Origin: Arenicellales bacterium
Lineage (GTDB): Bacteria; Pseudomonadota; Gammaproteobacteria; Arenicellales; JAJDZL01
Direction: 5' to 3'
Assembly: GCA_965214785.1 (NCBI GenBank)
Contig: OZ243975.1
Span: 56,430-120,429 of the forward strand
Length of the DNA: 64,000 bases
The notes beneath the pieces are model-generated. The model saw nothing but the letters and a program-made list of their open reading frames with translations, made no database searches and was not told the origin of the DNA. Both the position numbers and the translations under genes were made by a program. Below are positions 6,584 to 63,817 of the stretch, piece after piece (the stretch's first letter is position 1; every line of letters starts with the position of its first letter).

Positions 6584-8479
6584 TCAGTTTTTCGGGTAAC
6601 CGATAGAATTGAGCGCTTCGGTAATTTCATCAAGAATCACCGGGTCGTCAATGGTCGCAGGCATTTTCCACGGTTCGGCGTTTGCGATTTTCTGCATGGT
6701 GCCTCTTAAGATTTTGCCCGAGCGGGTTTTTGGCAGCCGCTTGACGACGACAGCTTGTTTGAATGCTGCAACAGGTCCGATTTTTTGCCGAACCAGTTTG
6801 ATACACTCATCAACGATTTCATTATCGCTGCGTTCACAACCGGAGTTCACAACCAGAAACCCCAGCGGCAACTGGCCCTTTAGTGAATCGTTCACACCGC
6901 TTACAGCACATTCGGCAACGTCCGGGTGGGAAGTCAGCACTTCTTCCATTGCCCCGGTAGACAGTCGATGGCCGGCAACATTGATGATGTCGTCTGTCCG
7001 GGACATGACAAAAACATAACCGTCTTCGTCGATATACCCGGCATCAGCGGTTTTGTAATAGCCTGGAAATTCCGCCAGATAGGTGTCATAAAAACGCTTT
7101 TTCGCATTCCACAGGGTTGGAAAAGTCCCAGGTGGCAAAGGAAGTCTTGCGACCAAAGAGCCGATTTCGCCAGCGGCAACCGGTTCATTGTTTTCGTCAA
7201 CCGCTTGCAGGTCCCATCCGGGAACCGGCTTTGACGGCGACCCTTCTTTTATCGCAATTGTCTCGATTCCAATGCAGTTGGAACATATCGACCATCCTGT
7301 CTCGGTTTGCCACCAATGGTCTATTACCGGAACTTGAAGTTTGTCTTCAGCCCAGTGCAGCGTATCGGGGTCGGTTCTTTCTCCTGCCAGAAACAATGTG
7401 CGAAAACATGACATGTCATGTTTTTTCAAGTGCTCTGCGGTGGGGTCTTCTTTTTTTACGGCTCGAAAGGCGGTTGGCGCAGTGAAAAGTGTGGACACGT
7501 TATGCTGCGAAATTACCCGCCAAAACGCCCCAGGATCAGGTGTTCCGACAGGTTTACCTTCATACAGGATTGTTGTGTTCCCGGCAAATAGCGGTGCGTA
7601 AATAATGTACGAATGTCCAACTACCCATCCCACATCGGAGGCGGCCCAGAACACTTCACCTGGTTCCACACCATAGATATTTTTCATCGACCATTTCAAT
7701 GCGACAATGTGCCCGCCGGTGTCTCGGACAACTCCTTTTGGCTGTCCGGTTGTGCCTGATGTGTAGATGATATAAAGCGGATCGGTTGCTTTGACTGCGA
7801 CACAGTCTACAGGTTGTGCCTGCGCCATTTGTTCATTCCAGCAGTAATCTGTGCCATCGATCATTTTTGCCTGTGCTTCAGGGCGCGGAAATACCACGCA
7901 GGCCGCAGGTTTGTGTGACGAAAGTTCAATTGCTTCATCTACCAAAGGCTTGTATTCGATGACTCGTCCCGGTTCGAGTCCGCACGATGCGGTTATGATC
8001 ACAGTAGGCGTTGCATCGTCGATACGCACTGCAAGCTCATTCGATGCGAACCCGCCGAACACTATTGAGTGAATTGCTCCTAAACGGGCACAGGCCAATA
8101 CTGCGATCACGGTCTCAGGAATCATCGGCATGTAGACAACAACCCGGCTGCCTTTTTCAACTCCTAAAGACCTCAGAACACCGGCAAATTTAGCTGTCTC
8201 GTGTGTCAATTCCCGATAGGTGTAACGGCGCACTTCACCGGTCATTGCTGAATCGTAAATCAGTGCATTTTGATCTGCACGTCCTTCGGTCAGATGCAAA
8301 TCCAGTGCGTTATAACAGGTGTTGAGTTCACCACCGCTAAACCACCGGTAGTAGGGTTTGTCAGTGTCATCAAGCACTTTGTCCCAAGGTTTGTCCCAAT
8401 GCACGTCTTTAGCGATCTCACCCCAGAATTGGACTGGATCGTTGAGAGACTTTTGGTATTCAGATTGAAATCGGCTCAT
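6584..8479 (-). CDS. prpE: Propionate--CoA ligase (acyl-CoA synthetase, AMP-forming)
   Basis: 631 aa. AMP-binding signature YTSGTTGQPKG, PrpE/Acs-like N-terminus (YQKSLNDPVQFWGE) and C-terminal RSGKILR. It is the first gene of the operon with mcm-pccBA-mce. Confidence 0.85.
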   Translation of the reverse strand: MSRFQSEYQKSLNDPVQFWGEIAKDVHWDKPWDKVLDDTDKPYYRWFSGGELNTCYNALDLHLTEGRADQNALIYDSAMTGEVRRYTYRELTHETAKFAGVLRSLGVEKGSRVVVYMPMIPETVIAVLACARLGAIHSIVFGGFASNELAVRIDDATPTVIITASCGLEPGRVIEYKPLVDEAIELSSHKPAACVVFPRPEAQAKMIDGTDYCWNEQMAQAQPVDCVAVKATDPLYIIYTSGTTGQPKGVVRDTGGHIVALKWSMKNIYGVEPGEVFWAASDVGWVVGHSYIIYAPLFAGNTTILYEGKPVGTPDPGAFWRVISQHNVSTLFTAPTAFRAVKKEDPTAEHLKKHDMSCFRTLFLAGERTDPDTLHWAEDKLQVPVIDHWWQTETGWSICSNCIGIETIAIKEGSPSKPVPGWDLQAVDENNEPVAAGEIGSLVARLPLPPGTFPTLWNAKKRFYDTYLAEFPGYYKTADAGYIDEDGYVFVMSRTDDIINVAGHRLSTGAMEEVLTSHPDVAECAVSGVNDSLKGQLPLGFLVVNSGCERSDNEIVDECIKLVRQKIGPVAAFKQAVVVKRLPKTRSGKILRGTMQKIANAEPWKMPATIDDPVILDEITEALNSIGYPKN

Positions 8480-47609: not shown

Positions 47610-49973
47610 ATGAGTGATACAGGAATTGGCGCCTCAGTACGCCGCAAAGAAGATATACGTTTTGTTCGAGGTGCAGGGAAATACACCGACGATATGAATC
47701 TGGCGGGACAAGTTCACGCCTATATTCTGCGTTCTGCGCACGCCCATGCAGCGATCAAATCAATTGATACCTCTGGAGCAAAAGCCTGTCCAGGCGTAGT
47801 TGCAGTTTTTACCTCTGATGATCTGTCACAAATCGGCGGTTTACCGTGTGGCTGGCAAGTGCACAGTAAAGATGGCAACCCGATGGCAGAGCCAAAGCAT
47901 CCGGTATTAGCCGAAGGCAAAGTCAGACACGTCGGTGACCCGGTCGCTGTTGTCATTGCCGAAACTAAAATACAAGCGCGAGATGCAGCCGAGGCAATCG
48001 AAGTTGATTACGAAGTGCTCGATGCAGTGATGGATATGCGTCATGCTGTTGCAAATGGCTCGGTTCATGTTCATGACGACATCGCAACCAACGTCTGCTA
48101 TGACTGGGAACTCGGTGACAAGGAAGCAACCGATCAGGCATTTGCGAATGCAGCTCGAGTGGTATCTTTGGATCTGATCAACAACCGGCTGATTCCAAAC
48201 GCAATGGAACCGCGCTGTGCAATTGGCGATTACGACCAGTCCGGTGGACAATATACACTGCACACAACGAGTCAAAACCCGCATGTAATACGTTTGCTGA
48301 TGGCAGCTTTCGTAATGGGTTTGTCGGAAAGCAAACTGCGTGTTCACGCACCCGACGTCGGTGGTGGATTTGGTTCAAAAATCTATAACTATGCCGAAGA
48401 GGTGATTGTCACCTGGGCAGCCGCCAAGGTCGGAAGGCCGGTAAAGTGGACAGCAGATCGCAGTGAATCATTTATGTCTGATGCACACGGCAGAGATCAC
48501 GTAACGACTGTTGAACTGGCGATGGACGACAGTGGAAAATTTCTGGGATTAAGGGAAACAACCCTGGCCAATATGGGTGCTTACCTGTCAACTTTCGCGC
48601 CTTGTATTCCGACTTACCTGCACGCAACTTTGCTGGCAGGTCAGTATACAACCCCTGCAATCCATTGCGGCGTAAAAGCAGTTTTCACCAACACGGTGCC
48701 GGTAGACGCTTATCGTGGAGCCGGTCGACCGGAAGCCACCTATCTGCTGGAACGAATCGTTCAGGTTGCAGCGGATGAAATGGGCATGGACCCGGTTGAA
48801 ATTCGGCGCAAAAACTTCATCCAGCCAGACCAGTTCCCGTATCAGACTCCGGTTGCCTTAGTTTATGACACAGGCAATTACCAGGCAAGTATGGATAAGG
48901 CACTGGCAAATTCAGATTACGCAGGATTTGCACAGCGAAAGGAAGCGTCCAACCGGGCAGGGAAGCTGCGCGGAATTGGCGTTTCAACATACATTGAAGC
49001 TTGTGGAATCGCACCGTCAAACGTAGTCGGTTCGCTTGGTGCTCGTGCAGGTCTGTATGAGGCGGCAACCATCCGCGTCAATCCGACAGGTTCTATCAGT
49101 GTTATGACCGGCTCTCATTCGCACGGACAAGGACACGAAACCACTTTTGCCCAAGTTGTTTCCGAAAAACTTGGTGTGGATATTGATAACGTGGAAATCA
49201 TTCACGGCGATACTGACAAGATTCCATTTGGTATGGGTACCTATGGGTCAAGGTCGATTGCTGTCGGTGGAACTGCGATTGTCAATGCAATTGACAAGGT
49301 CGTTGCAAAGGGCAAGAAAATCGCCGCACACCTGCTGGAAACTTCAGCATCCGACATCGAATTTGAAAATGGCATGTTTGTGGTACCTGGTACCGACAAA
49401 GCAAAAGCGTTCGGTGAAATATCGCTGGCTGCATATGTGCCTCATCAATATCCGCTGGAGGAACTGGAACCTGGACTGGAGGAAACGGCGTTCTATGACC
49501 CGAAAAACTTCACCTTTCCAGCTGGCACCTATATTTGTGAAGTGGAAGTGGATCCGGAAACCGGCGTGGTTGAGATTGCAAAGTTTCACGCAACCGACGA
49601 TTTTGGCACGGTGATTAATCCAATGATTGTTGAAGGACAGGTTCACGGCGGTTTGGTACAAGGCATCGGTCAGGCTCTGCTTGAAGGGTGCCAGTATGAC
49701 GCCAACGGACAGTTGCTTTCTGGATCGTTTATGGACTACACCATGCCGCGAGCGTCTGATGTGCCTTGTTTCTCTGTAGATACTACGGTGACAGAATGTT
49801 CGCATAACCCATTGGGTGTAAAAGGCTGTGGTGAAGCCGGCGCGATTGGATCGCCGCCTGCAGTTATCAACGCAATTTTGAACGCACTCGCGCCAGTGGG
49901 TGTAAAGAATCTGGATATGCCGGCCACGCCGCATCGCGTCTGGCAGGCAATTCGAAACGCGCAAGCATCGTAA
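47610..49973 (+). CDS. coxL: Molybdopterin-binding large subunit, form II CoxL-like
   Basis: 787 aa. The active-site loop reads [14 protein letters not shown] (AYRGAGR is the form II signature, not the form I AYxCSFR). Confidence 0.88.
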
Positions 49974-49987
49974 CAGGAGGTATCACC

Positions 49988-50785
49988 ATGTATGCGTTTG
50001 AGTATAAAAATCCCTCAAGTCTTGATGAAGCTGTTCAAATGTTGCGCAGTTCGCAAGAAGGGCAGTTATTGGCAGGCGGACACACTTTGCTTCCAACCAT
50101 GAAACAGCGTCTTGCTGCTGCGAGCGATCTAGTTGACCTCGGCGCAGTCAGTGAACTGCGGGGAATCTCGACAGATGGCTCAACTGTTACGGTCGGTGCA
50201 ATGACAACCCATGCTCAAGTAGCTGCGAGCGCCGATGTGCGCGGGGCTATTGCTGCCTTAGCTGAACTTGCAGGCGGTATTGGTGATCCTCAGGTTCGAA
50301 ACTGTGGAACCATCGGCGGTTCAATTGCCAATAACGATCCGGCTGCAGATTACCCGGCAGCTCTGGTCGCTCTGAAGGCAACAGTAAATACGTCGAAACG
50401 GTCTATAGGAGCTGAAGATTTTTTCACTGCAATGTTTGAAACTGCGCTTGAGGAAGACGAAATTATTGTCTCGGTGAGTTTTATGGTGCCGTCTAAAGCA
50501 GCGTACTGCAAATTTGCAAATCCCGCTTCCCGTTATGCGGTGGTCGGAGTTTTTGTTGCACAATACGCAGACGGCGTTCGCCTTGCCGTAACCGGTGCAG
50601 GTGCGAGCGTGTTCAGGGTCAGTGAAATGGAATCAGCACTAGATCAATCATTCTCGCCTTCATCTGTCGAAAATATTCAAATTTCGAAAGATGGCTTGAA
50701 TGAAGATATCCATGCCAGTGCTGAATATCGTGCTCACCTTGTGACTGTCATGGCAAAGCGGGCTGTGGCCAAAGCAAACGGTTGA
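49988..50785 (+). CDS. coxM: FAD-binding medium subunit of the CODH-family enzyme
   Basis: 265 aa. FAD-binding PCMH-type domain (LLAGGHTLLPTMK, GTIGGSIANNDPAADYP). S-L-M gene order. Confidence 0.9.
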   Translation: MYAFEYKNPSSLDEAVQMLRSSQEGQLLAGGHTLLPTMKQRLAAASDLVDLGAVSELRGISTDGSTVTVGAMTTHAQVAASADVRGAIAALAELAGGIGDPQVRNCGTIGGSIANNDPAADYPAALVALKATVNTSKRSIGAEDFFTAMFETALEEDEIIVSVSFMVPSKAAYCKFANPASRYAVVGVFVAQYADGVRLAVTGAGASVFRVSEMESALDQSFSPSSVENIQISKDGLNEDIHASAEYRAHLVTVMAKRAVAKANG

Positions 50786-50809
50786 TATCGTTCGCTTGTC
50801 TGATTCGAA

Positions 50810-50843
50810 TTCAGGCATCTGGTGCAAATGCCAGGTGCCTGAA
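50810..50843 (+). other. Intercistronic stem-loop (13-bp arms with 1 mismatch, 8-nt loop) between coxM and the MoxR gene
   Basis: TTCAGGCATCTGG (50810-50822) pairs with CCAGGTGCCTGAA (50831-50843). No U-tract follows. Confidence 0.5.
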
Positions 50844-50899
50844 CCGTATATGAAATCGTTTCACCTTCTCAAGTTGAAGTTCGCTGGCGCAGACGAAAC

Positions 50900-51808
50900 A
50901 TGAACCAGCCAACAGACATAGCCAGTGTTATTTCGCTGTTTGCTGATGAAAACTATATCGCAGAGCGAAGTCTCGCGACTGCGCTCTACTTATCGCTGAA
51001 ACTTTCGCGCCCATTGTTGCTTGAAGGTGAGGCCGGTGTTGGAAAAACCGAAGTAGCAAAAGTATTGTCGGCAGTAACCAACCGACCATTTATACGCCTG
51101 CAGTGCTATGAAGGACTGGATGTGTCATCGGCGGTGTATGAATGGGACTATCCGCGTCAGATGATCGAAATTCGTTTGGCCGAGACACAAGGCAGTCAAA
51201 ACAAACAACAAATTTCAAGTGACATCTACTCAAAAAAGTTTCTTATCGCCCGCCCATTGCTGCAGGCTCTGGAAAGTGACGGTGACAATGCTCCGGTGCT
51301 TTTGATCGATGAAATTGACCGGGCCGATGAACCGTTTGAAGCTTATCTGCTGGAAATTCTGTCCGATTTCCAGGTCACCATTCCCGAGATTGGTACAGTA
51401 AAGGCAGACACTCCACCCACCGTCATTATCACTTCGAATCGAACCCGTGAAATTCATGATGCATTGAAACGACGCTGTTTCTATCACTGGGTTGATTATC
51501 CTGATGCACAAAGAGAGTTGAAAATACTGGCTTCCAAGGCGCCGGATGCCAGCCAAAGACTGGCGAATCAGATCGTGGGGTTTGTTCAACAGCTTCGCGA
51601 CGAAGACCTTTATAAAGCACCCGGTGTGGCAGAAACTATTGATTGGGCACATGCGCTGATTCAAATTGATGTCGTTGACTTAAGTCCTGATGCAGTTGAT
51701 GACACCCTAGGCGTGCTGCTGAAATATCAAGATGATATCGAACGGATTCGCGGACACGAAGCGACTCGAATTTTGCAAACCGTACAGACTATGGCAAGTG
51801 CCGGATAA
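50900..51808 (+). CDS. coxD: MoxR-type AAA+ ATPase (CoxD-like)
   Basis: 302 aa. Walker A EGEAGVGKTEVAK and Walker B LLIDEIDRA. Position downstream of coxSLM. Confidence 0.88.
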   Translation: MNQPTDIASVISLFADENYIAERSLATALYLSLKLSRPLLLEGEAGVGKTEVAKVLSAVTNRPFIRLQCYEGLDVSSAVYEWDYPRQMIEIRLAETQGSQNKQQISSDIYSKKFLIARPLLQALESDGDNAPVLLIDEIDRADEPFEAYLLEILSDFQVTIPEIGTVKADTPPTVIITSNRTREIHDALKRRCFYHWVDYPDAQRELKILASKAPDASQRLANQIVGFVQQLRDEDLYKAPGVAETIDWAHALIQIDVVDLSPDAVDDTLGVLLKYQDDIERIRGHEATRILQTVQTMASAG

Positions 51809-51824
51809 CAATGGAAAAATTGCC

Positions 51825-53099
51825 ATGGAAGCGGAAAATGGCAACGGAAAACTTGTTGCGAATCTAGTTCATTTCGGTCGTATTTTACGTTCTTGCGGAT
51901 TACCGGTTGGCACGGGAACCATTTTGCATGCGGTCGAAGCTGTCAGTCTTATTGGCTTGCATAATCGAGAAGATTTTTATTGGACTTTGCATGCTGTTTT
52001 CGTCAATCACCCCAGACAACGACTGATTTTCGATCAAGCGTTCCACATCTTCTGGAAAAATCCTCGGATACTCGAAAAATCGATATCGAATTTGCTGCCG
52101 CAAGTTCGAGTTCCACCAGATGCAGAAAATTCCAGACCAATTGTCAGAAGATTAAGTGAGTCTTTATTACAGTCGCTGGTAACGCAGGAGACAATCAGTG
52201 AAGATGACCAGCAAGTGGATTTTAAGGCATCACTGACATATTCAAATGCAGAAAGGTTTATGGAAGTAGACTTTGAGTCAATGTCGCAAGACGAGATGCG
52301 CCAGGCAAAGAAAGCCATCGAAACGATGAGAGTTGCGTTCCATAAAGCAAAGACCAGGCGATATCGAGTTCACCAAAGCGGTGAACGGGTAGATTTGCGA
52401 AATACAATGCGCCAGTCGATGCGCTGCGGTGCAGGTGAGATTGCACTGATTCGCCGAAAGCGACGATTTCGAACAACTCCGGTTGTGGTACTTTGTGATA
52501 TATCCGGTTCAATGAGCGAATATTCCAGAATGGTTTTGTATTTCGCACATGTACTGATGATGTGTCGAGCGGATGTGTGGTGCTTTGTATTCGGAACGCG
52601 TCTTACCAACATCACCCGACAGCTTCGTAGCCGAGATGTTGATGTGGCGATGGACAAAGTGTCCGACTCGGTGCTCGACTGGCACGGCGGTACGCGTATC
52701 GGTGATTGCTTGAAAACCTTCAATAACAACTGGATTCGACGACTGCCAATGTATCTGGCAACAGTGCTGGTTGTAACCGACGGACTGGATCGGTCGGAAA
52801 ACAACAATTTGAAATCTCAAATCAGTTTGTTGCACCGCTCGTGTCAACGCCTAATCTGGCTTAATCCGTTATTGCGCTATGAGCACTTTGAGCCTCGAGT
52901 CAGTGGAGTGCGAGCGATGCTCCCGCATGTTGACGCGTTTTTACCCGTACATAACCTCATTAGCCTGTATGAACTGGCTGAGAAATTCAGTTCTGGGGCG
53001 TTTGACAATGATTCTGAGCTAAGAAAAAGTCGAACTTTGTGGAAAAATAAAATGAACCAGGCCACATTGAATCAACCCCAATCAGCGGATGTATTGTGA
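51825..53099 (+). CDS. coxE: VWA-domain protein (CoxE-like)
   Basis: MIDAS motif LCDISGSMS. The start was placed at the ATG at 51825, after the MoxR stop. The track ORF starts at 51732, inside the MoxR gene. Confidence 0.82.
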   Translation: MEAENGNGKLVANLVHFGRILRSCGLPVGTGTILHAVEAVSLIGLHNREDFYWTLHAVFVNHPRQRLIFDQAFHIFWKNPRILEKSISNLLPQVRVPPDAENSRPIVRRLSESLLQSLVTQETISEDDQQVDFKASLTYSNAERFMEVDFESMSQDEMRQAKKAIETMRVAFHKAKTRRYRVHQSGERVDLRNTMRQSMRCGAGEIALIRRKRRFRTTPVVVLCDISGSMSEYSRMVLYFAHVLMMCRADVWCFVFGTRLTNITRQLRSRDVDVAMDKVSDSVLDWHGGTRIGDCLKTFNNNWIRRLPMYLATVLVVTDGLDRSENNNLKSQISLLHRSCQRLIWLNPLLRYEHFEPRVSGVRAMLPHVDAFLPVHNLISLYELAEKFSSGAFDNDSELRKSRTLWKNKMNQATLNQPQSADVL

Positions 53100-54136
53100 C
53101 GAATGGTGATAGCGAAATTTTGACGCTGTATCAACAGGTCAGTGATTGGATTGAAAAAGGCCATCGCGTTGCTATAGCAACTGTGATCTCAACTTGGGGC
53201 TCGTCTCCACGACCCGTTGGCAGTCAGTTGGTGGTCAACGATGAACGCAAGTTTGAGGGGTCAGTATCAGGCGGCTGTGTAGAAACAGCGGTCATTGCAG
53301 CTGCTATGGAGGTAATAGAAAGCTCACAGCCTCAGGTTCTGAAATTTGGTGTCAGCAATGACACAGCCTGGGAGGTGGGCTTGTCTTGCGGAGGTGAAAT
53401 TCAAGTGCATGTTGAATCGGTTGAAAGTCATTATCATTGCGATACAGGTTCACAATGGAAACTGTCTGATATTCATCGCATTATCGAAGCGCAAAACGAC
53501 CAGCATGCCATTGCCATCGTAAAGTCTCTCGATGGTACGATCCGCAGGATATACACCAAAGTGCCATCGGAACCCCTGTCATGGCTCGGCCGAGCAGTTG
53601 CAGAAGGATTTCGAAAAGATGCAAGCCAACTCATCGATACCGCTGGCGGCAAAGTGTTTATCCAAATTATTAATTCACCCTTGAAACTGATTATTGTCGG
53701 GGCAGTGCATATTGCGAAACACCTCATTGCACTTGCACAAATATGTGGATTTAATGTTGTTTTAATCGATCCGAGGCGGGCATTTACCGAGTCAGAATTT
53801 CTTTCGGAGACCGAGGTTATCACCAAGTGGCCTGACAAAGTGATTTCCAATTTGAAGTTGAATGCCAGGGCTGCAGTTGTAACACTCACTCATGACCCGA
53901 AAATAGACGAACCGGCACTGATTAGCGCTTTGAATTCTGAAGCTTTTTATGTCGGTGCGCTTGGAAGTCGCCGTACGCATCAAGCTCGGTGCGACCGACT
54001 CGCTCAGGCTGGTGTTTGCGAGGACGATATAGCAAGAATTCATGCGCCCATCGGGCTGGACATCGGTGCTCAGTCACCGGCAGAGATTGCATTGGCGATA
54101 ATGGGTGAAATCACCCAATCGCTGCGACACAGTTAG
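53096..54136 (+). CDS. XdhC/CoxI-family molybdenum cofactor insertion accessory protein
   Basis: 346 aa. XdhC_CoxI N-domain (VAIATVISTWGSSPRPVGSQLVV..GSVSGGCVE) and a Rossmann-like C-domain (LIIVGAVHIAKHL). GTGA overlap with the coxE stop. Confidence 0.85.
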   Translation: MTNGDSEILTLYQQVSDWIEKGHRVAIATVISTWGSSPRPVGSQLVVNDERKFEGSVSGGCVETAVIAAAMEVIESSQPQVLKFGVSNDTAWEVGLSCGGEIQVHVESVESHYHCDTGSQWKLSDIHRIIEAQNDQHAIAIVKSLDGTIRRIYTKVPSEPLSWLGRAVAEGFRKDASQLIDTAGGKVFIQIINSPLKLIIVGAVHIAKHLIALAQICGFNVVLIDPRRAFTESEFLSETEVITKWPDKVISNLKLNARAAVVTLTHDPKIDEPALISALNSEAFYVGALGSRRTHQARCDRLAQAGVCEDDIARIHAPIGLDIGAQSPAEIALAIMGEITQSLRHS

Positions 54137-54142
54137 GCAAAC

Positions 54143-55801
54143 ATGAAATTTGGCAGAATCAGTGTTGAACACGGTGAAGGAGTGATTCTTGCGCACTCAA
54201 TCAAAGTGCTTGGACGAAAGTGGAAAAAAGGTCGAGTTTTATCAACACACGATATTGATGTGCTGCGTCAAGAAGGTCATGAATCGGTTGTTGGTGCGAG
54301 CCTTGAAGAAAATGATGTCGATGAGGATTCAGCAGCGCAGGCGATTGCCCGAGTTATCGCCGGACATGGCGTTGAAGTTCGAACCGCTGCGACAGGTCGA
54401 TGTAACATCTACGCATCAGTGCGGGGTTTGCTAGACATTCGCCACCAGGCGATCAATCGCATTAACACGGTTGATGAAGCTTTTACGGTTGCGGCTTTGC
54501 CGCCATATACAAGTGTCTATAGCGGTCAATTACTGGCAACAATAAAAATTATTCCTTTCGCTGTGAGTCGACAATTGCTCAATCAGTGTATTGCGGTTGC
54601 ATCGAAAGGTGCAACACCAATCAATGTATACGAGTACCAACGCCATTGCGTTGGACTAATACAGACTCAAACACCATGGTTTCAGTCGAGTCTAATCGAA
54701 AAAGGTGCGCGCATGCTAGAGCAGCGGGTAGAAGCGCTGGGCTGTGAAATTGTAGAGCATCGTGTTTGTGACCACCACGAACAAGCAGTGGCTGGCGCCG
54801 TCGATGAGATGTTGAAACTCAATGTCGATCTTATTTTTGTTTTAGGTGCTTGCGCAATTCAAGACAGGTGTGATGTCGTTCCACAGGGCATTGTGGATGC
54901 CGGCGGCAAAATCGAGCACTTCGGCATGCCAGTAGATCCGGGCAATTTGCTGTTGCTTGCCAGACATCGTAAAACAGTGATCCTCGGGCTTCCGGGTTGT
55001 GTGCGATCTCCAAAACGAAATGGATTTGATTTTGTCTTTGAACGAATAGTAGCGGGAATGGATGTTCGCCGCGAGGATATTATTGAAATGGGAGTGGGCG
55101 GTGTGCTGACTGAGCCGTCGCGACGCCCCGAGCGCAGGAGCGCTGACAGGTCTGTCAAACAGTCCAAATCTAAGAATATTGTTGCGATTGTACTGGCAGC
55201 TGGTCAGTCTCGACGTATGGGAGAGGCCAACAAACTGGTAATGAAGATCGATGATCATCAATCAACGGTCATTCGTACGGTAGTGAGAATTTTATTGCAG
55301 TCGAATGTCAACCATATATACGTAGCGACAGGACACGACCGCGACATGATCTGCGCACAACTGAGCGACTTGCCAGTTACTTTGGTCCACAATCCGGAGT
55401 ACAGTCGCGGTTTGAGTACATCACTTCGAACTGTATTGGCCGCATTGCCTGAAAGTATCGATGGAGTGCTTGTGTGCCTAGGTGATATGCCTTTCGTCAA
55501 AAGCAGTCACATTAATGTGTTAACAGACGCATTTGATCCGGTATCTGAAAATAGCATTTGTGTGCCAACCTATAAGGGCAAGCGTGGAAACCCAGTGCTT
55601 TGGGACCGGAAATACATTCAGGAAATGATGGAGGTGCGCGGTGACACAGGCGCCAAACACATGATTGGAGACTATGAAGATTTTGTCATTGAAGTTGAAA
55701 TGGACAGTCCCGGGGTGCTGATCGATCTTGACACGCCGCAAGCGTTTGCCAGCTACGTTAATTCACCGGCTAAGCAGTCAGCCAGCAACAATCCGGAGTA
55801 A
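54143..55801 (+). CDS. Fusion of a molybdopterin-binding (MoCF-biosynthesis-like) domain with a MobA/MocA-like nucleotidyltransferase (probable molybdenum cofactor cytidylyltransferase)
   Basis: 552 aa. The C-terminal about 200 aa begins IVLAAGQSRRMGEANKL, the NTP_transf_3/MocA signature. The N-terminal about 340 aa ends with GLPGCVRSPKRNGFD, typical of MoCF_biosynth-like domains. Confidence 0.75.
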   Translation: MKFGRISVEHGEGVILAHSIKVLGRKWKKGRVLSTHDIDVLRQEGHESVVGASLEENDVDEDSAAQAIARVIAGHGVEVRTAATGRCNIYASVRGLLDIRHQAINRINTVDEAFTVAALPPYTSVYSGQLLATIKIIPFAVSRQLLNQCIAVASKGATPINVYEYQRHCVGLIQTQTPWFQSSLIEKGARMLEQRVEALGCEIVEHRVCDHHEQAVAGAVDEMLKLNVDLIFVLGACAIQDRCDVVPQGIVDAGGKIEHFGMPVDPGNLLLLARHRKTVILGLPGCVRSPKRNGFDFVFERIVAGMDVRREDIIEMGVGGVLTEPSRRPERRSADRSVKQSKSKNIVAIVLAAGQSRRMGEANKLVMKIDDHQSTVIRTVVRILLQSNVNHIYVATGHDRDMICAQLSDLPVTLVHNPEYSRGLSTSLRTVLAALPESIDGVLVCLGDMPFVKSSHINVLTDAFDPVSENSICVPTYKGKRGNPVLWDRKYIQEMMEVRGDTGAKHMIGDYEDFVIEVEMDSPGVLIDLDTPQAFASYVNSPAKQSASNNPE

Positions 55802-58852: not shown

Positions 58853-59006
58853 ATTATTTCCTCAAAGGTGATTTGAATTTTAAGTCCTGAAAATAGCGAT
58901 ATTCTATAACCTTTGCAGTTTTATAAATGGATTTGCGTAAACAAAGTCGTATCATGTAAAACATCGGTTGCCAACATTAGGTTCAACAACCAAAAGAAGG
59001 ACAATT

Positions 59007-59981
59007 GTGGATCGTACTGAACGCTTTTATAAGATAGACAGATTGCTGCAGCGGTCTGAAGGCATCTCGATGAACGATTTGCTCGGTGAGTTGGAGGTGT
59101 CCAAGGCAACGATCAAGCGGGATTTGACTTATATGCGCGATCGGCTGCACGCTCCGATCATATGGGACTTAAGTAGTCGAAGGTATCGATATGAAGATCC
59201 TCGTCCTGGATTCAAGCGGTTTTCTCTCCCTGGTCTTTGGTTCAATAGCAGTGAGTTGCATTCACTGCTGATAATGGAACACCTAATCAAACACCTCCAG
59301 CCGGGGTTCTTGGCATCACATGTTGACCCATTGCGCACTCGGGTGAGAACAATTCTTGAAAAAGGTGAGCGGTCGGTAGAAGAAATTGTTCATCGTGTAA
59401 GGATTGTTTCAGGGTCTAATCCGCCGGTTGATTCGGAAATCTTTCAAAAAATAGCAGATGCGGTATTCAATCGCAAGCAGATTTACATCAGCTACTTCAA
59501 TCGACATGACAATCAAACTGTGTTTCGTCACGTATCGCCGCAAAGGCTGGTTTACTACAATGAAAATTGGTATTTAGACAGTTGGTGCCATTTGCGAAAC
59601 GGGCTTCGCACGTTTAGACTGTCGTATTTGTCCACGGCTGAACTGACGCAAAAAGATGCGACTGAAATTGATGATGCGCAAATGAATTTGGAACTTCAAG
59701 CTGGCTTTGGAATATTCGGCGGTACAGATACTTCGCAGGCGGTTTTAAGATTTAGCGCTGCCGTTTCCCCATGGGTGAAGCACGAGTATTGGCATTCCGG
59801 TCAAACACAGCATTTCGATGACGACGGGACAATGGTGATGACTTTGCCTTTTTCGAAAGACCCTGAACTGATCATGAAGCTTTTGCGTTATGGACCTGAT
59901 GTAGAAGTTCTGGAACCGGTGAGTTTACGACAAAAAATTGCAAAAAGCCTTCGCGCAGCCAGTGCGCTCTACAGCGACTGA
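59007..59981 (+). CDS. WYL-domain transcriptional regulator (wHTH-WYL-WCX architecture, YafY/PafBC-like)
   Basis: GTG start at 59007 with an AAGGA 5 nt upstream. N-terminal HTH (ISMNDLLGELEVSKATIKRDLTYM), WYL core (YYNENWYLDSWCH), and a C-terminal block YGPDVEVLEP. Confidence 0.8.
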   Translation: MDRTERFYKIDRLLQRSEGISMNDLLGELEVSKATIKRDLTYMRDRLHAPIIWDLSSRRYRYEDPRPGFKRFSLPGLWFNSSELHSLLIMEHLIKHLQPGFLASHVDPLRTRVRTILEKGERSVEEIVHRVRIVSGSNPPVDSEIFQKIADAVFNRKQIYISYFNRHDNQTVFRHVSPQRLVYYNENWYLDSWCHLRNGLRTFRLSYLSTAELTQKDATEIDDAQMNLELQAGFGIFGGTDTSQAVLRFSAAVSPWVKHEYWHSGQTQHFDDDGTMVMTLPFSKDPELIMKLLRYGPDVEVLEPVSLRQKIAKSLRAASALYSD

Positions 59982-60248
59982 AACAGTCGTTTTAGTCTCA
60001 ATAGGTTCTGCCAGTCTGCCTGAGCCATTATTCGTCAAAATATCCAACCTACATTTCCAACCCCCCTGTTACTGACATCTGTAAGTCAAACAAATGGGGC
60101 CCAGTGGTTCAGTGACTCAATAACGTTCGTTTAGACTGACTATGTGTCAGTATTTTTAACTGGCATTGAATATATTTTTCAACAGGCTCACGCTATGAGC
60201 CACCTAGCACTTAGAATACTTCCACTAATTCACAAATTGGAGTATTTT

Positions 60249-61301
60249 ATGAACACTATTACAAGCCATTTCGACGAGGTTACGTGCGCAGAGCCTCAGT
60301 TGTTTAAAAATTTAACAATGATTCCGCTATTGAAAGACGCCGGTATCGAATCGGATTACTTTTTGTTGGACGAAGCTTTGCAACAAAATGTTTTCGAGGT
60401 CAAGGAAGTTTCCGAGTCCGGCAGTGTGCCGGAGCTCAGTGTATTGAATAAATCTGACAAGCGGATATTGCTTCTTGATGGTGAAGAGTTGGTTGGAGCG
60501 AAGCAAAACCGCATTCTCAACATCACCGTGATGGTTCCTGCCAAAGCATCGATCACGGTACCGGTGTCTTGTGTGGAAGCCGGTCGCTGGGGATACCGTG
60601 ATGCACAATCCCACAGACCTTCTCGAAGTGAATTCGAACGCATGCGCGCTAGAATGAATTTCGACAGTGCGCAACGGATACATTACTCCGAGAGTCGACG
60701 AAGAAATCATTATCGTGTCAGTGAGACTCTTCGAAGTGCGGGAACAAGACACGGAAACCAAGGGGGAGTGTGGGATGACATTGCCAGAAAGTCTGAGCGT
60801 ATGAACGCCAGATCAGAGACTCGTGCTTCAGAGGCAATGTATGACAAGTTTCGAAGCGATTTGAATGAATATCTCAGTTCTTTCGAAGCGGTTCCCAATC
60901 AGGTCGGAGCGGTGTTTTCGGTGGCTGGGTCAACAACAGGTGTTGATGTTTTTGAATCCCCTGAAGCATTGTCCAAGAGTCTGAGCAAGCTGATCCAAAG
61001 TTATTCGCTCGATGCGGTTGACCAACTCAGGTCAGGCGTAGATGAAACCCCTGATATTGATGTTGATAAATTTTTAAAACAGATTGTCAGCGCCAATTGT
61101 GAAGTCTACGATGGAGTAGGTGAAGGCAACGACTATCGAATTGAGAGCGAACAACTCATTGGCGGAGCTTTGGTGGTTGACGAACGCGTAATTCATTTAT
61201 GTGCATTTGCCAAGTCCAGTGATGAAGACGAATTGTCGATCGGTCGCAGTCGGATGACGAGAACTTCTCATCGAATTCGCAACCGTTCCCGACAAGCCTA
61301 G
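60249..61301 (+). CDS. DUF6569 / ARPP-1-like protein of unknown function
   Basis: ATG at 60249 with a GGAG 8 nt upstream. The N-terminal pattern LFKNLTMIPLL...DYFLLDEAL...VKEVSESGSVPELSVLNKSDKRILLLDGEELVGAKQNRILNITVMVPA...VPVSCVEAGRW matches, from memory, the conserved core of this uncharacterised family. An HMM check is needed. Confidence 0.6.
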   Translation: MNTITSHFDEVTCAEPQLFKNLTMIPLLKDAGIESDYFLLDEALQQNVFEVKEVSESGSVPELSVLNKSDKRILLLDGEELVGAKQNRILNITVMVPAKASITVPVSCVEAGRWGYRDAQSHRPSRSEFERMRARMNFDSAQRIHYSESRRRNHYRVSETLRSAGTRHGNQGGVWDDIARKSERMNARSETRASEAMYDKFRSDLNEYLSSFEAVPNQVGAVFSVAGSTTGVDVFESPEALSKSLSKLIQSYSLDAVDQLRSGVDETPDIDVDKFLKQIVSANCEVYDGVGEGNDYRIESEQLIGGALVVDERVIHLCAFAKSSDEDELSIGRSRMTRTSHRIRNRSRQA

Positions 61302-61495: not shown

Positions 61496-62452
61496 ATGAA
61501 ACAAAAAATAGGCAAAGATAAAACGCACAATTGGTTATTTCGGACATTGGCTGAAATCCCTGTATTTCGGTATGAGGCATTGAAGTTGTCTCTGACTGAA
61601 GAGCAGTTTAAGATTGTTGACGCAAAAAATGCGAAACTATCCCCTACTTCGATGCCGATGGCGGACGGGTCAGTAAGAGATGGTGACGTGGTTATGGAAG
61701 TTCCGCTTAAACAGCAAGTAGGATCTGGGCGAATAATCAAGACAAGATTTTTGTTTGAGCACAAAAGCAGGATCAATCGAAGGGGACTGGTCGAACAATT
61801 AATCCGGTATCAGCATGGATTGTATAAACGTGAAAATACCCCGGTTATCAACGTGGTGGTTAACAATGGCGCGGTGCCTCGATTTGGCGAGGTGTTTCAG
61901 TTCCGCGACTGGCTTGAGGAGATGGATGAAGAGTTTTGGCGTCAATACGGCCGCTTTGTGATGAATTTTGATGCCAAAGTATTAAACCTGCGAGACCCAG
62001 TGGTACAGGGACGTTTGATGAACGTTGAGTTCTCAACCGCTATAGGTTGGTATGCAATGGGCAAGGTGAAAGACAGGATTGACGCGGAAACAGCACAAAA
62101 TATGATCGAAATGATTGGGCGGTTGGATGAACACAGCAATGCGCAAATTGTTCAACCGTCACTTGACTATTTACACACGTATCACGAGGAGGTTACAATG
62201 GAATGGTTACGGGACTTGGAAATTCAGGAAACTGGGAGTGACAAAGTTATGGCACGGGCATTGAGTAGTTTAGAGTTAAGAATGCAGGAAAGCAGGAACG
62301 AAGGCATCAACAAAGGTAGGACTGAAAGCAAGTCAGAGATCGCAATGAGGCTGCTTAGTAAGGGACTAGATGCTCAATTTGTCGGTGAAGTTACGAAATT
62401 GAGTCAAGACCGGATCGAACAAATTCAGCGCGAACTGAAAGACAACCAGTGA
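61496..62452 (+). CDS. Rpn-family (YhgA-like, PDDEXK_2) recombination-promoting nuclease / putative transposase
   Basis: 318 aa. The layout is THNWLFRTL N-terminus, acidic DGDVVMEV, then FLFEHKS (ExK) and LIRYQ, matching the Rpn/YhgA PD-(D/E)xK core. It has a helical C-terminal tail. An in-frame internal ATG at 62249 is preceded by GGGAG. Confidence 0.7.
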   Translation: MKQKIGKDKTHNWLFRTLAEIPVFRYEALKLSLTEEQFKIVDAKNAKLSPTSMPMADGSVRDGDVVMEVPLKQQVGSGRIIKTRFLFEHKSRINRRGLVEQLIRYQHGLYKRENTPVINVVVNNGAVPRFGEVFQFRDWLEEMDEEFWRQYGRFVMNFDAKVLNLRDPVVQGRLMNVEFSTAIGWYAMGKVKDRIDAETAQNMIEMIGRLDEHSNAQIVQPSLDYLHTYHEEVTMEWLRDLEIQETGSDKVMARALSSLELRMQESRNEGINKGRTESKSEIAMRLLSKGLDAQFVGEVTKLSQDRIEQIQRELKDNQ

Positions 62453-62469
62453 CTGTCTTCATTTGTTAG
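62195..62469 (+). repeat. Direct repeat copy 1 (3' end of the Rpn gene plus 17 nt downstream)
   Basis: Aligned by eye to 62489-62750. It shares the ends ACAATG..CTTGGAAATTCAGGAAACTGGGAG and ..ATTTGTTAG. Confidence 0.85.
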
Positions 62470-62488
62470 TGATGGCTATTAGGCTTTA

Positions 62489-62750
62489 ACAATGAAGTGG
62501 TTTAAGGCTTGGAAATTCAGGAAACTGGGAGCGACAAAGTTATGGCACGGGCATTGAGTAGTTTAGAGTTAAGAATGCAGGAAAGCAGGAATGAAGGCAT
62601 AAATGAAAACAAGTCAGAGATCGCAATGAGGCTGCTTAGTAAGGGACTGGATACTCAATTTGTTGGTGAAGTTACGAAATTGAGTCAAGACCGGATCGAA
62701 CAAATTCAACGCGAACTGAAAAACAACGCGTGATCGTTGTAATTTGTTAG
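62489..62750 (+). repeat. Direct repeat copy 2 (extragenic, diverged)
   Basis: Same unit as copy 1, separated from it by 19 nt. It carries scattered substitutions and a 12-nt deletion relative to copy 1 (GGCATCAACAAAGGTAGGACTGAAAGCAAG versus GGCATAAATGAAAACAAG). Confidence 0.85.
62509..62733 (+). CDS. Free-standing ORF encoding a copy of the Rpn C-terminal tail (possible RpnS-like small protein)
   Basis: 74 codons from the TTG at 62509, or 63 from the ATG at 62542, which has a GGGAG 10 nt upstream. The product, EIQETGSDKVMARALSSLELRMQESRNEGINENKSEIAMRLLSKGLDTQFVGEVTKLSQDRIEQIQRELKNNA, is near-identical to the last 78 aa of the upstream gene apart from a 4-aa gap. Whether it is translated is unknown. 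Confidence 0.45.
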   Translation: MEIQETGSDKVMARALSSLELRMQESRNEGINENKSEIAMRLLSKGLDTQFVGEVTKLSQDRIEQIQRELKNNA

Positions 62751-63235: not shown

Positions 63236-63817
63236 ATGTCGCCAGATGCAGTTGTCCGGAAAAAAACTAATCTTGTATGGATAGACCTTGAAATGACGGG
63301 ATTGTCTCCTGCCAATGACCGTATCATAGAAATCGCAACAATTGTTACAGACATACATCTGAAAATTGTTGCTGAAGGACCAACGATGGTGATCCATCAA
63401 AGTAACGAAAGAATTGACAATATGGATGATTGGAATACCAAAACCCATACCGAAAATGGATTGATCGAACTGGTGCGAAATTCTACGATCGATGAGCACG
63501 AAGCCCAACAGCGTACCCTATCGTTTTTGCGAAAATATGCGACTAAAAAGCGGTCGCCGCTGTGCGGTAACGCAGTGTGTCAGGATCGCCGATTCCTTGA
63601 TCGGTACATGCCGGAAGTGTCAAATTATTTGCATTACCGCCATCTCGACGTAAGCACGATAAAAGAACTAGCGAAACGCTGGCGACCAGACCTTGCGATT
63701 GAAAAGGATAAATTCAGCAATCACCGCGCACTGGATGATATACGCCAATCGATCAAAGAACTTCAGGTGTATCGAGACAATTTCTTTTTAACCAACCCGA
63801 TACTGGATGGGTCGTAG
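63236..63817 (+). CDS. orn: Oligoribonuclease
   Basis: 193 aa. DEDDh exonuclease motifs [23 protein letters not shown] and [17 protein letters not shown] lies 7 nt upstream. Confidence 0.93.

Follow-up and report, generated by a model that had tools for sequence, protein, structure and literature searches.

The stretch of DNA discussed here (the window) comprises 64,000 nucleotides (nt) of contig OZ243975.1 from an Arenicellales bacterium of the Gammaproteobacteria. It carries an open reading frame (ORF) of 318 amino acids (aa) at 61496-62452 on the plus strand, here called rpnL. ORF calling, hidden Markov models (HMMs), profile alignment and an AlphaFold (AF2) model together predict that rpnL encodes a full-length Rpn-like PD-(D/E)xK protein, a toxin or nuclease. 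An in-frame internal ORF of 67 aa, rpnS (62249-62452, +), forms the end of the gene and is the predicted cognate intragenic antitoxin. Downstream on the same strand lies rpnSs (62542-62733, +), a free-standing gene of 63 aa that is a copy of the tail of rpnL. It is likely that the three make up an rpnL/rpnS/rpnSs locus like rpnE-ypaA of Escherichia coli, and the Rpn clade to which it belongs is a divergent one, found in uncultured Gammaproteobacteria.

The duplication of the tail is far beyond chance. The whole tandem duplication (62215-62750, +) was found with Tandem Repeats Finder as a head-to-tail array with a period of 281, 1.9 copies, 89% matches and a score of 876, and in a self-blastn search with E = 3e-90. 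The repeated segment consists of the final ~255 nt of the ORF at 61496-62452 plus a short flank. An earlier reading of the bare letters (the sequence-only reading) had noted that the tail of an Rpn-like ORF recurs downstream, and global alignment, self-blastn and Tandem Repeats Finder all bear this out. It had placed the units at 62195-62469 and 62489-62750. When these are globally aligned, the 275 columns divide into 241 identical, 21 mismatched and 13 gapped, and the ~20 nt at the 5' ends (62195-62215 and 62489-62508) show weak similarity; the duplication stands, but the 5' borders as first drawn need correction. Over the coding part (62216-62452 against 62509-62733), 214 positions are identical, 11 are substituted and a single gap of 12 nt is left; by eye, roughly a dozen substitutions and one 12-nt indel had been counted between the copies. 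At the indel the gene encodes INKGRTESKSEIA and the copy INENKSEIA. Both tails also have the same GGGAG-N10-ATG layout that had been described, at 62234-62251 in the gene and at 62527-62544 in the copy. The gene/copy junction of the window is present in three separately assembled contigs as well (the related loci L001, L007 and L008).

The 12-nt indel is one unit of a four-residue repeat, as the sequence-only reading had supposed. The repeat run starts at residue 13 after the internal Met; the in-gene tail has four units (QESR NEGI NKGR TESK, 62285-62332, +) and the copy has three (QESR NEGI NENK, 62578-62613, +). In Rpn proteins, hypervariable four-residue repeats begin 8-20 residues past the internal Met (PMC10400941). 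L001, L007 and L008, whose proteins are 89-93% identical to that of the window, have a gene tail with a single unit and a copy with two, and the gene tail of the more distant locus L005 has ~10 consecutive QEGL/QKGL/RKGL units. The number of units is thus quick to change.

The tail is modelled with the fold of E. coli RpnA-S. A profile of 15 tails has RpnA-S (7TH0) as its top PDB match (E 7.9e-4), and the model of the 63-aa copy has three helices (residues 8-33, 38-45 and 49-62) that Foldseek superimposes on 7TH0 with a root mean square deviation of 0.9 Å over 42 columns, a probability of 0.98 and a target TM-score of 0.84. Like RpnA-S, the model is a three-helix bundle in which the point of repeat insertion lies on a long first helix. 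The identity to RpnA-S is 24%, and the first helix of the model (residues 8-33) is longer than that of RpnA-S because of the three or four repeat units. In the Foldseek search the fold of the copy also resembles DNA-binding domains of the helix-turn-helix (HTH) type, TrpR-like and DeoR domains among them, and the likeness of RpnS to HTH DNA-binding domains was remarked on by Zhong et al. (PMC10400941). The small ORF alone matches the C-terminal end of TIGR01784 with 31 bits. The 63-aa copy is recorded as a called gene in a protein collection with a match to PF27070 (HTH_Rpn_C) that is precomputed data only. It thus resembles stand-alone DUF4351 (PF14261) and HTH_Rpn_C (PF27070) genes, which encode small free-standing Rpn C-terminal domain proteins. 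Unlike DUF4351 proteins it has no PF14261 match, since a Pfam scan of the 74-aa ORF around it found no family at E <= 0.1.

Two further observations concern this type of domain. Three proteins of a representative library (P0097, P0139 and P0148; 278-323 aa) are matched by the tail profile over three or four separate stretches; they consist of several RpnS-like domains fused in tandem, and the tail profile recognises no nuclease body in them. A third tail-type small protein, P0115, has 59 aa and two repeat units and is 76% identical to the copy in the window. It is not encoded in the window but is apparently recorded on the same 2,960,598-bp contig as the window's Rpn and RpnSs.

The rpnL protein is predicted to be a PD-(D/E)xK nuclease-type body joined to this C-terminal three-helix domain. 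A word-indexed search with the protein found just four related clusters, with identities of 89, 59, 47 and 39%. A profile made from rpnL and these four relatives matched 719 representative clusters at E <= 0.001, and 53 of 64 sampled full-length profile homologues match PF04754 (Transposase_31, YhgA-like), with a best E of 7.4e-45. Across the 64 homologues D64 and K90 never vary, and at least 90% of them keep E88. In an hhalign alignment of rpnL with E. coli RpnE (E 9.6e-5, 273 columns, 23% identity), D64, E88 and K90 correspond to the D ... E-H-Q motif (VIEHQS) of RpnE. The predicted catalytic core, D64 ... E88-H-K90 (FLFEHKS), is located at 61685-61765 (+), and its codons were checked. The AF2 model has a predicted local distance difference test score (pLDDT) of 93.6. 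The full-length profile had no match in a sequence search of the PDB, and an Rfam scan of the window found nothing. Because of the PF04754 homologues, the catalytic D/E/K and the alignment to RpnE, rpnL is filed as a divergent member of the Rpn/YhgA lineage, the family of PF04754, TIGR01784 and COG5464, despite scores below the curated HMM cut-offs: it misses the thresholds, whereas homology, catalytic motif and tail domain all place it there. The Rpn-like label of the sequence-only reading is upheld for a distant member by the hhalign result and the 53 of 64 homologues, and is not upheld by the curated cut-offs of PF04754 and TIGR01784.

Rpn genes of E. coli are genes within genes, and all of them have an internal promoter with a transcription start site (PMC10400941). 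The sequence features expected of such an arrangement, an internal promoter, a Shine-Dalgarno (SD) sequence and an in-frame start, can be recognised in rpnL, where the GGAG and the ATG are conserved. A promoter-like site, TTTACA-N18-TACAAT (62170-62199, +; 10 of 12 matches in the promoter scan), precedes the SD sequence GGGAG (62234-62238, +), the GGAG core of which is kept in relatives. The TACAAT hexamer, at 62194-62199 in the window, is identical at the nucleotide level in five in-gene versions (the window, L002, L003, L004 and L005), and the codons that carry it vary: GTT, ATT or CTT, followed by ACA, followed by ATG or ATT. Equally spaced TTGACA-type hexamers stand upstream as -35-like elements in the five lineages (TTTACA, TTTGCA, CTTGAA, TTTGAA and CTTGCA). 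L005 keeps the hexamer despite an Ile in place of Met in the V/I/L-T-M/I motif. The protein motif may be conserved partly through its overlap with the -10 box, and constraint at the nucleotide level agrees with the internal promoter that every E. coli rpn gene is known to have (PMC10400941). The internal Met252 (ATG 62249) aligns in hhalign with Met244, the mapped start of RpnE-S, and stands at the beginning of a long helix (residues 250-288) in the rpnL model. The alignment of this SD-ATG pair to the mapped start supports the proposal that 62249 is an RpnS-like start.

For the copy, the frame at 62509-62733 (+) is indeed open, but the TTG with which it begins is an unlikely start. This 74-aa ORF begins 56 nt past the stop codon of the 318-aa ORF, and TTG 62509 is merely the first start codon past an in-frame TAA at 62503; a TGA lies in frame at 62470. 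TTG 62509 was rejected since relatives have in-frame stops between its position and the ATG. The nearest in-frame stop is 13 codons upstream of the copy's ATG in the window and in L001, 9 in L002 and 6 in L004, and the frame 3' of the ATG is open in every relative that has the copy. Because of these upstream stops and the open frame downstream, the copy gene probably runs from ATG 62542 to 62733 and encodes 63 aa, with its own SD sequence GGGAG at 62527-62531 (+). The gene call draws on the open frame in relatives, the PF27070 and TIGR01784 matches, the fold and the substitution pattern.

How might the copy be expressed? The spacer together with the 5' edge of the second unit (62453-62541, +) contains a degraded -10 (AACAAT, 62488-62493) and the in-frame stops, and the -35 was left outside the duplicated segment; the downstream copies of the relatives likewise have a degraded -10. 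A sigma-70 promoter of the copy's own was rejected, as just 3-4 of 6 hexamer matches are available. The promoter and terminator scan found no terminator between rpnL and the copy; the sole terminator-like site in the locus is a weak hairpin over the stop codon of the copy (62723-62740, +), which has 6 pairs and a poor T-tract and is of low confidence. With no terminator and no good promoter between the genes, co-transcription of the copy with rpnL and rpnS by read-through is the likeliest route.

Downstream copies are present in four of six related lineages. L001, L007 and L008 have one; these belong to the same clade and represent several strains that co-exist in a single metagenome (sample ERZ25070917). 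So do L002 (59%) and L004 (39%), but not L003 (47%) and L005 (37%). L002 has an array (L002:6724-7877) of the in-gene tail, at least two full downstream copies and one partial copy, with a 100-N scaffold gap at 7623-7722 that makes the copy count uncertain. The repeat regions of its units differ: QKALQKGID, QKAWQKGWQEGID and QKAWQEGWKEGCKQARQEVID. L005 (L005:4001-4969), from the Arenicellales metagenome-assembled genome OZ241837.1, is an Rpn relative without a downstream copy, and it is the only clade member found by a clade-profile search of contigs among 185,579 species-representative genomes. The same kind of search of metagenome contigs gave no match. The genes that flank rpnL differ among the window, L002, L003 and L004, so rpnL and its tail copy travel as a unit.

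The gene tail and the copy were compared by the ratio of nonsynonymous to synonymous substitution (dN/dS). The pairwise comparison proposed in the sequence-only reading gives 0.19 for the window (p = 0.012); the values are 0.36 in L001, 0.25 in L002 and 0.16 in L004, and the pooled value is 0.25 (p = 1.6e-7). A caveat is that one member of every pair is the gene, which is itself constrained, and that a copy can be renewed by conversion. The diverged gene/copy junction is common to the window and L001, from which it follows that the duplication predates their split; independent duplications in the two were rejected for the same reason. The interiors of the units tell a different history from their edges. 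In the units of the window and L001, 10 informative interior sites group the copies of the same genome and 0 interior sites group orthologues, whereas the five sites that support orthology are all at the 5' edge. Relative to L007, the in-gene tail of the window is of gene type at 9 of 9 sites on the edge and of cassette type at 16 of the 19 in the interior (Fisher p = 3e-5). In its 3' half it has 5 differences in 126 positions from the downstream copy of L007 and 18 in 126 from the in-gene tail of L007. The copy of L001 contains a gene-type patch. Since the gene tail of the window is of cassette type inside and the L001 copy has a gene-type patch, sequence has moved both ways: gene conversion has carried it from tail to copy and from copy to tail. 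The copy in the window is closest to the tail of its own gene, with 94% nt identity, against 87-90% for the tails of other strains. Between the window and L001 the tail has 87% nt identity and the middle of the gene 98-100%.

Free-standing copies of an Rpn tail are not new. Zhong et al. (PNAS 2023; PMC10400941) showed that RpnS, made from an internal start, inhibits the toxic RpnL. In the same work Rpn tails were found to vary in four-residue repeat number and the Rpn system was found to defend against phage (PMC10400941). The sequence-only reading gave these three points correctly. However, its statement that no extragenic RpnS-like copy had been described is refuted, because the paper describes free-standing downstream rpnSs copies. 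RpnS is also encoded there by a separate gene, ypaA (rpnESs), a second RpnE-S copy directly downstream of rpnE, and some strains have rpnCSs downstream of rpnC (PMC10400941). The rpnSs copies cluster with their own upstream tails and derive from them, and they can disappear when they are deleted or become fused to the N-terminal domain (PMC10400941). RpnESs protein was detected in E. coli by SPA tagging, and in some species stand-alone RpnS genes are annotated as DUF4351 (PMC10400941). The arrangement was thus already described in E. coli in 2023, and the window holds a further example of a known design.

The K-12 locus shows the same thing. Its ypaA starts 12 nt past the rpnE stop, is 88.7% identical to the rpnE tail (142 nt, one 12-nt gap) and has one four-residue unit more than that tail. 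At least 80% of the K-12 segment of rpnE tail and ypaA is found in one place in 3,887 of 5,426 complete E. coli genomes. In the E. coli strains inspected here (L006:7817-8002 and L009-L013), RefSeq treats ypaA/rpnESs as a pseudogene or names it "hypothetical protein, incomplete", and enters rpnE under "ISNCY family transposase".

The likeness of the window to the E. coli loci extends to several features. As in rpnE-ypaA and rpnC-rpnCSs, the Rpn gene holds within it a promoter, an SD sequence and an ATG, here predicted. As in rpnE-ypaA, a small gene on the same strand after the stop is a copy of the tail beginning at the internal Met, the two tails are ~89-94% identical in nt and their repeat regions differ by indels of 12 nt or a multiple of it, and the locus is polymorphic among strains; E. 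coli includes fused single-copy forms. There are differences as well. The body of rpnL is only remotely related to that of rpnE (23% identity) and falls under the curated HMM cut-offs, and the spacer from stop to ATG is 89 nt in the window but 12 nt in K-12. The host belongs to an uncultured gammaproteobacterial lineage.

The TACAAT/-35 pair, the GGGAG and the ATG at 62249 inside rpnL would yield a 67-aa RpnS identical to the tail of RpnL. A tandem duplication from just upstream of the SD sequence to just past the stop produced the free-standing 63-aa gene, rpnSs, with one four-residue unit fewer than the in-gene tail. The duplication is older than the split from the 89%-identical relatives, and the tails have since converted each other both ways. 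By analogy with E. coli, the locus would work as follows. RpnL would be a toxic DNA endonuclease, and RpnS would bind the RpnL C-terminal domain through its long first helix and inhibit it. RpnSs would be translated, most likely from transcripts of rpnL and rpnS that read through, and would be a second dimerising protein of the RpnS type. As its repeat number differs, its affinity for the resident RpnL would probably be altered or weaker. The DNA of rpnSs may also serve as a template for changing the tail of the gene. Of the functions first suggested for the copy, altered specificity agrees with the repeat mismatch and a recombination cassette agrees with the mosaic tails, but a silent copy is unlikely given the conserved SD sequence, ATG and open frame.

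Several observations weigh against reading the locus as an rpnL/rpnS/rpnSs system. The score of rpnL against PF04754 is 16.7 bits, under the cut-off of 21, and against TIGR01784 (Rpn family) it is 35.5 bits, under the cut-off of 52.1, yet with an E of 9.3e-9. Foldseek matches of the full rpnL model are weak and, in a PDB that contains no full-length Rpn, are enriched in PD-(D/E)xK nucleases with none at E < 1e-3; the best of them, all at E > 1e-3, are PaqCI (probability 0.89), McrC, ACE1/Cas4, NucS and Mus81. PADLOC gave no match for the Rpn, and none for RpnSs or for a neighbouring ARPP-1 domain protein. The copy itself lacks a convincing promoter. Its orthologous comparison, copy to copy between the window and L001, has a dN/dS of 0.58 that is not significant (p 0.22), and repeated conversion from a constrained gene could keep a non-functional copy clean. 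The last point comes from E. coli RpnC, in which one extra repeat abolished inhibition (PMC10400941). By this rule a mismatched copy would not neutralise the resident RpnL, so that it cannot be taken for granted that the copy is an antitoxin to the gene beside it.

The mismatch is consistent. A single unit sets gene and copy apart in the window, in the type shared by L001, L007 and L008, in L002 (first copy) and in L004, and five two-copy E. coli strains have 0/1, 5/2, 6/4, 8/4 and 5/1 extra units in gene and copy. Equal repeat numbers were found in 0 of the 9 pairs examined. Given how variable the repeats are, the consistent mismatch could be due to chance. An alternative reading of the locus is that the copy is selected as a reservoir for recombinational switching of the tail, with the small protein secondary or non-cognate, in which case a switch would re-specify the toxin and its intragenic antitoxin together. 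Neisseria pilE/pilS is a silent-cassette variation system, and the analogy is that a partial copy beside a gene donates to the variable region by gene conversion. The pilS comparison has limits: the cassette in the window has its own SD sequence and ATG and is probably translated, it is usually single, and it has no known dedicated recombination signal. Selection for switching is a real if minority possibility. It agrees with tails that are mosaic in both directions among strains with bodies over 89% identical, with a tail that diverges faster than the body between the window and L001, with the unequal repeat numbers in 9 of 9 pairs and with at least two further copies of different repeat number in L002. 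A fused single-copy form in a sixth E. coli strain (L012), of the kind reported (PMC10400941), fits as well. However, any tandem duplicate converts, and exchange alone is no proof of selected switching. The conserved SD sequence, ATG and frame of the copies and the translation of RpnESs in E. coli argue that the protein matters, most loci have a single cassette, and no recombination machinery or hotspot was identified at the loci.

A bolder form of this idea can be put forward tentatively, and is rather doubtful as it stands. The downstream tail genes would be deliberately mismatched cassettes and not redundant antitoxins. Conversion would switch the number and the sequence of the repeats in the toxin's dimerisation helix and the intragenic antitoxin together, as follows from the gene-within-gene layout, so that the locus would escape mimics or inhibitors made by phage and stay immune to itself. 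The expressed, mismatched RpnSs would be a modulator or a guard against the alternative tail type.

It has also to be considered that a mismatched RpnSs does not act on RpnL, but pairs with RpnS or acts on DNA through its HTH-like fold, and in this way tunes the supply of free RpnS or the transcription of the locus. The mismatch in every pair, together with the failure of mismatched partners to inhibit RpnC (PMC10400941), is in line with such a role, as is the resemblance to TrpR-like and DeoR domains that the E. coli paper also noted. The rule of mismatch, however, comes from one protein, RpnC, and mismatches are expected fairly often by chance when repeats are hypervariable. A modulating role is unlikely.

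That the copy is a decaying, functionless by-product of duplication, kept similar by occasional conversion, is quite improbable. It would explain the dN/dS of copy orthologues, the degraded -10 and missing promoter, the RefSeq labels of the E. coli equivalents and the lack of a copy in L003 and L005. But in the window, L001, L007, L008, L002 (two copies) and L004 one and the same ATG opens an unbroken frame, and this frame has stayed intact at paralogue dS values of up to 0.37 with stops accumulating immediately upstream of the ATG. The pooled dN/dS of 0.25 and the retained SD sequence also speak against decay, and the protein of the E. coli counterpart has been detected (PMC10400941). An assembly artefact, in which a repeat was collapsed or expanded, can be set aside. 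The scaffold gap in L002 shows that such arrays can trouble assemblers, but the window copies differ by 21 positions and the 12-nt indel and their junction recurs in the independent contigs of three different strains.

Directly upstream of rpnL on the same strand (58968-61301, +) are two genes, one for an HTH-WYL-WCX regulator (337 aa) and one for a protein with an ARPP-1 domain (385 aa, PF20208, E 9e-94); PADLOC recognises the WYL protein only. In L001, L007 and L008 the Rpn gene likewise comes after ARPP-1, and the WYL gene there has shrunk to an 82-aa WCX fragment; the ARPP-1 neighbour is absent in L002-L005. The WYL, ARPP-1 and Rpn genes may form a small defence islet between housekeeping genes. 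A functional link of ARPP-1 or WYL to Rpn was not adopted, as the adjacency is limited to near relatives and is missing in L002-L005. A molybdenum hydroxylase cluster of the CO or xanthine dehydrogenase type, part of ordinary metabolism, occupies 47610-55801 (+) and comprises the large subunit, the FAD subunit, an AAA ATPase, a VWA CoxE-like protein, XdhC and a MobA-like protein. The oligoribonuclease gene orn (63236-63817) lies downstream of the islet. With this cluster and orn nearby, the Rpn islet sits in a chromosomal housekeeping context.

As a single instance, the rpnL/rpnS/rpnSs locus of the window matters little. It extends the architecture known from E. coli to a remote Rpn clade that is missed by curated HMMs. 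This is of use for annotation: the 63-aa gene should be given ATG 62542 as its start and should not be labelled a pseudogene. What is the purpose of a downstream copy if, as for RpnC, a mismatch of one unit abolishes inhibition? The conversion mosaics and the consistent repeat mismatch could merit a survey across the whole family.

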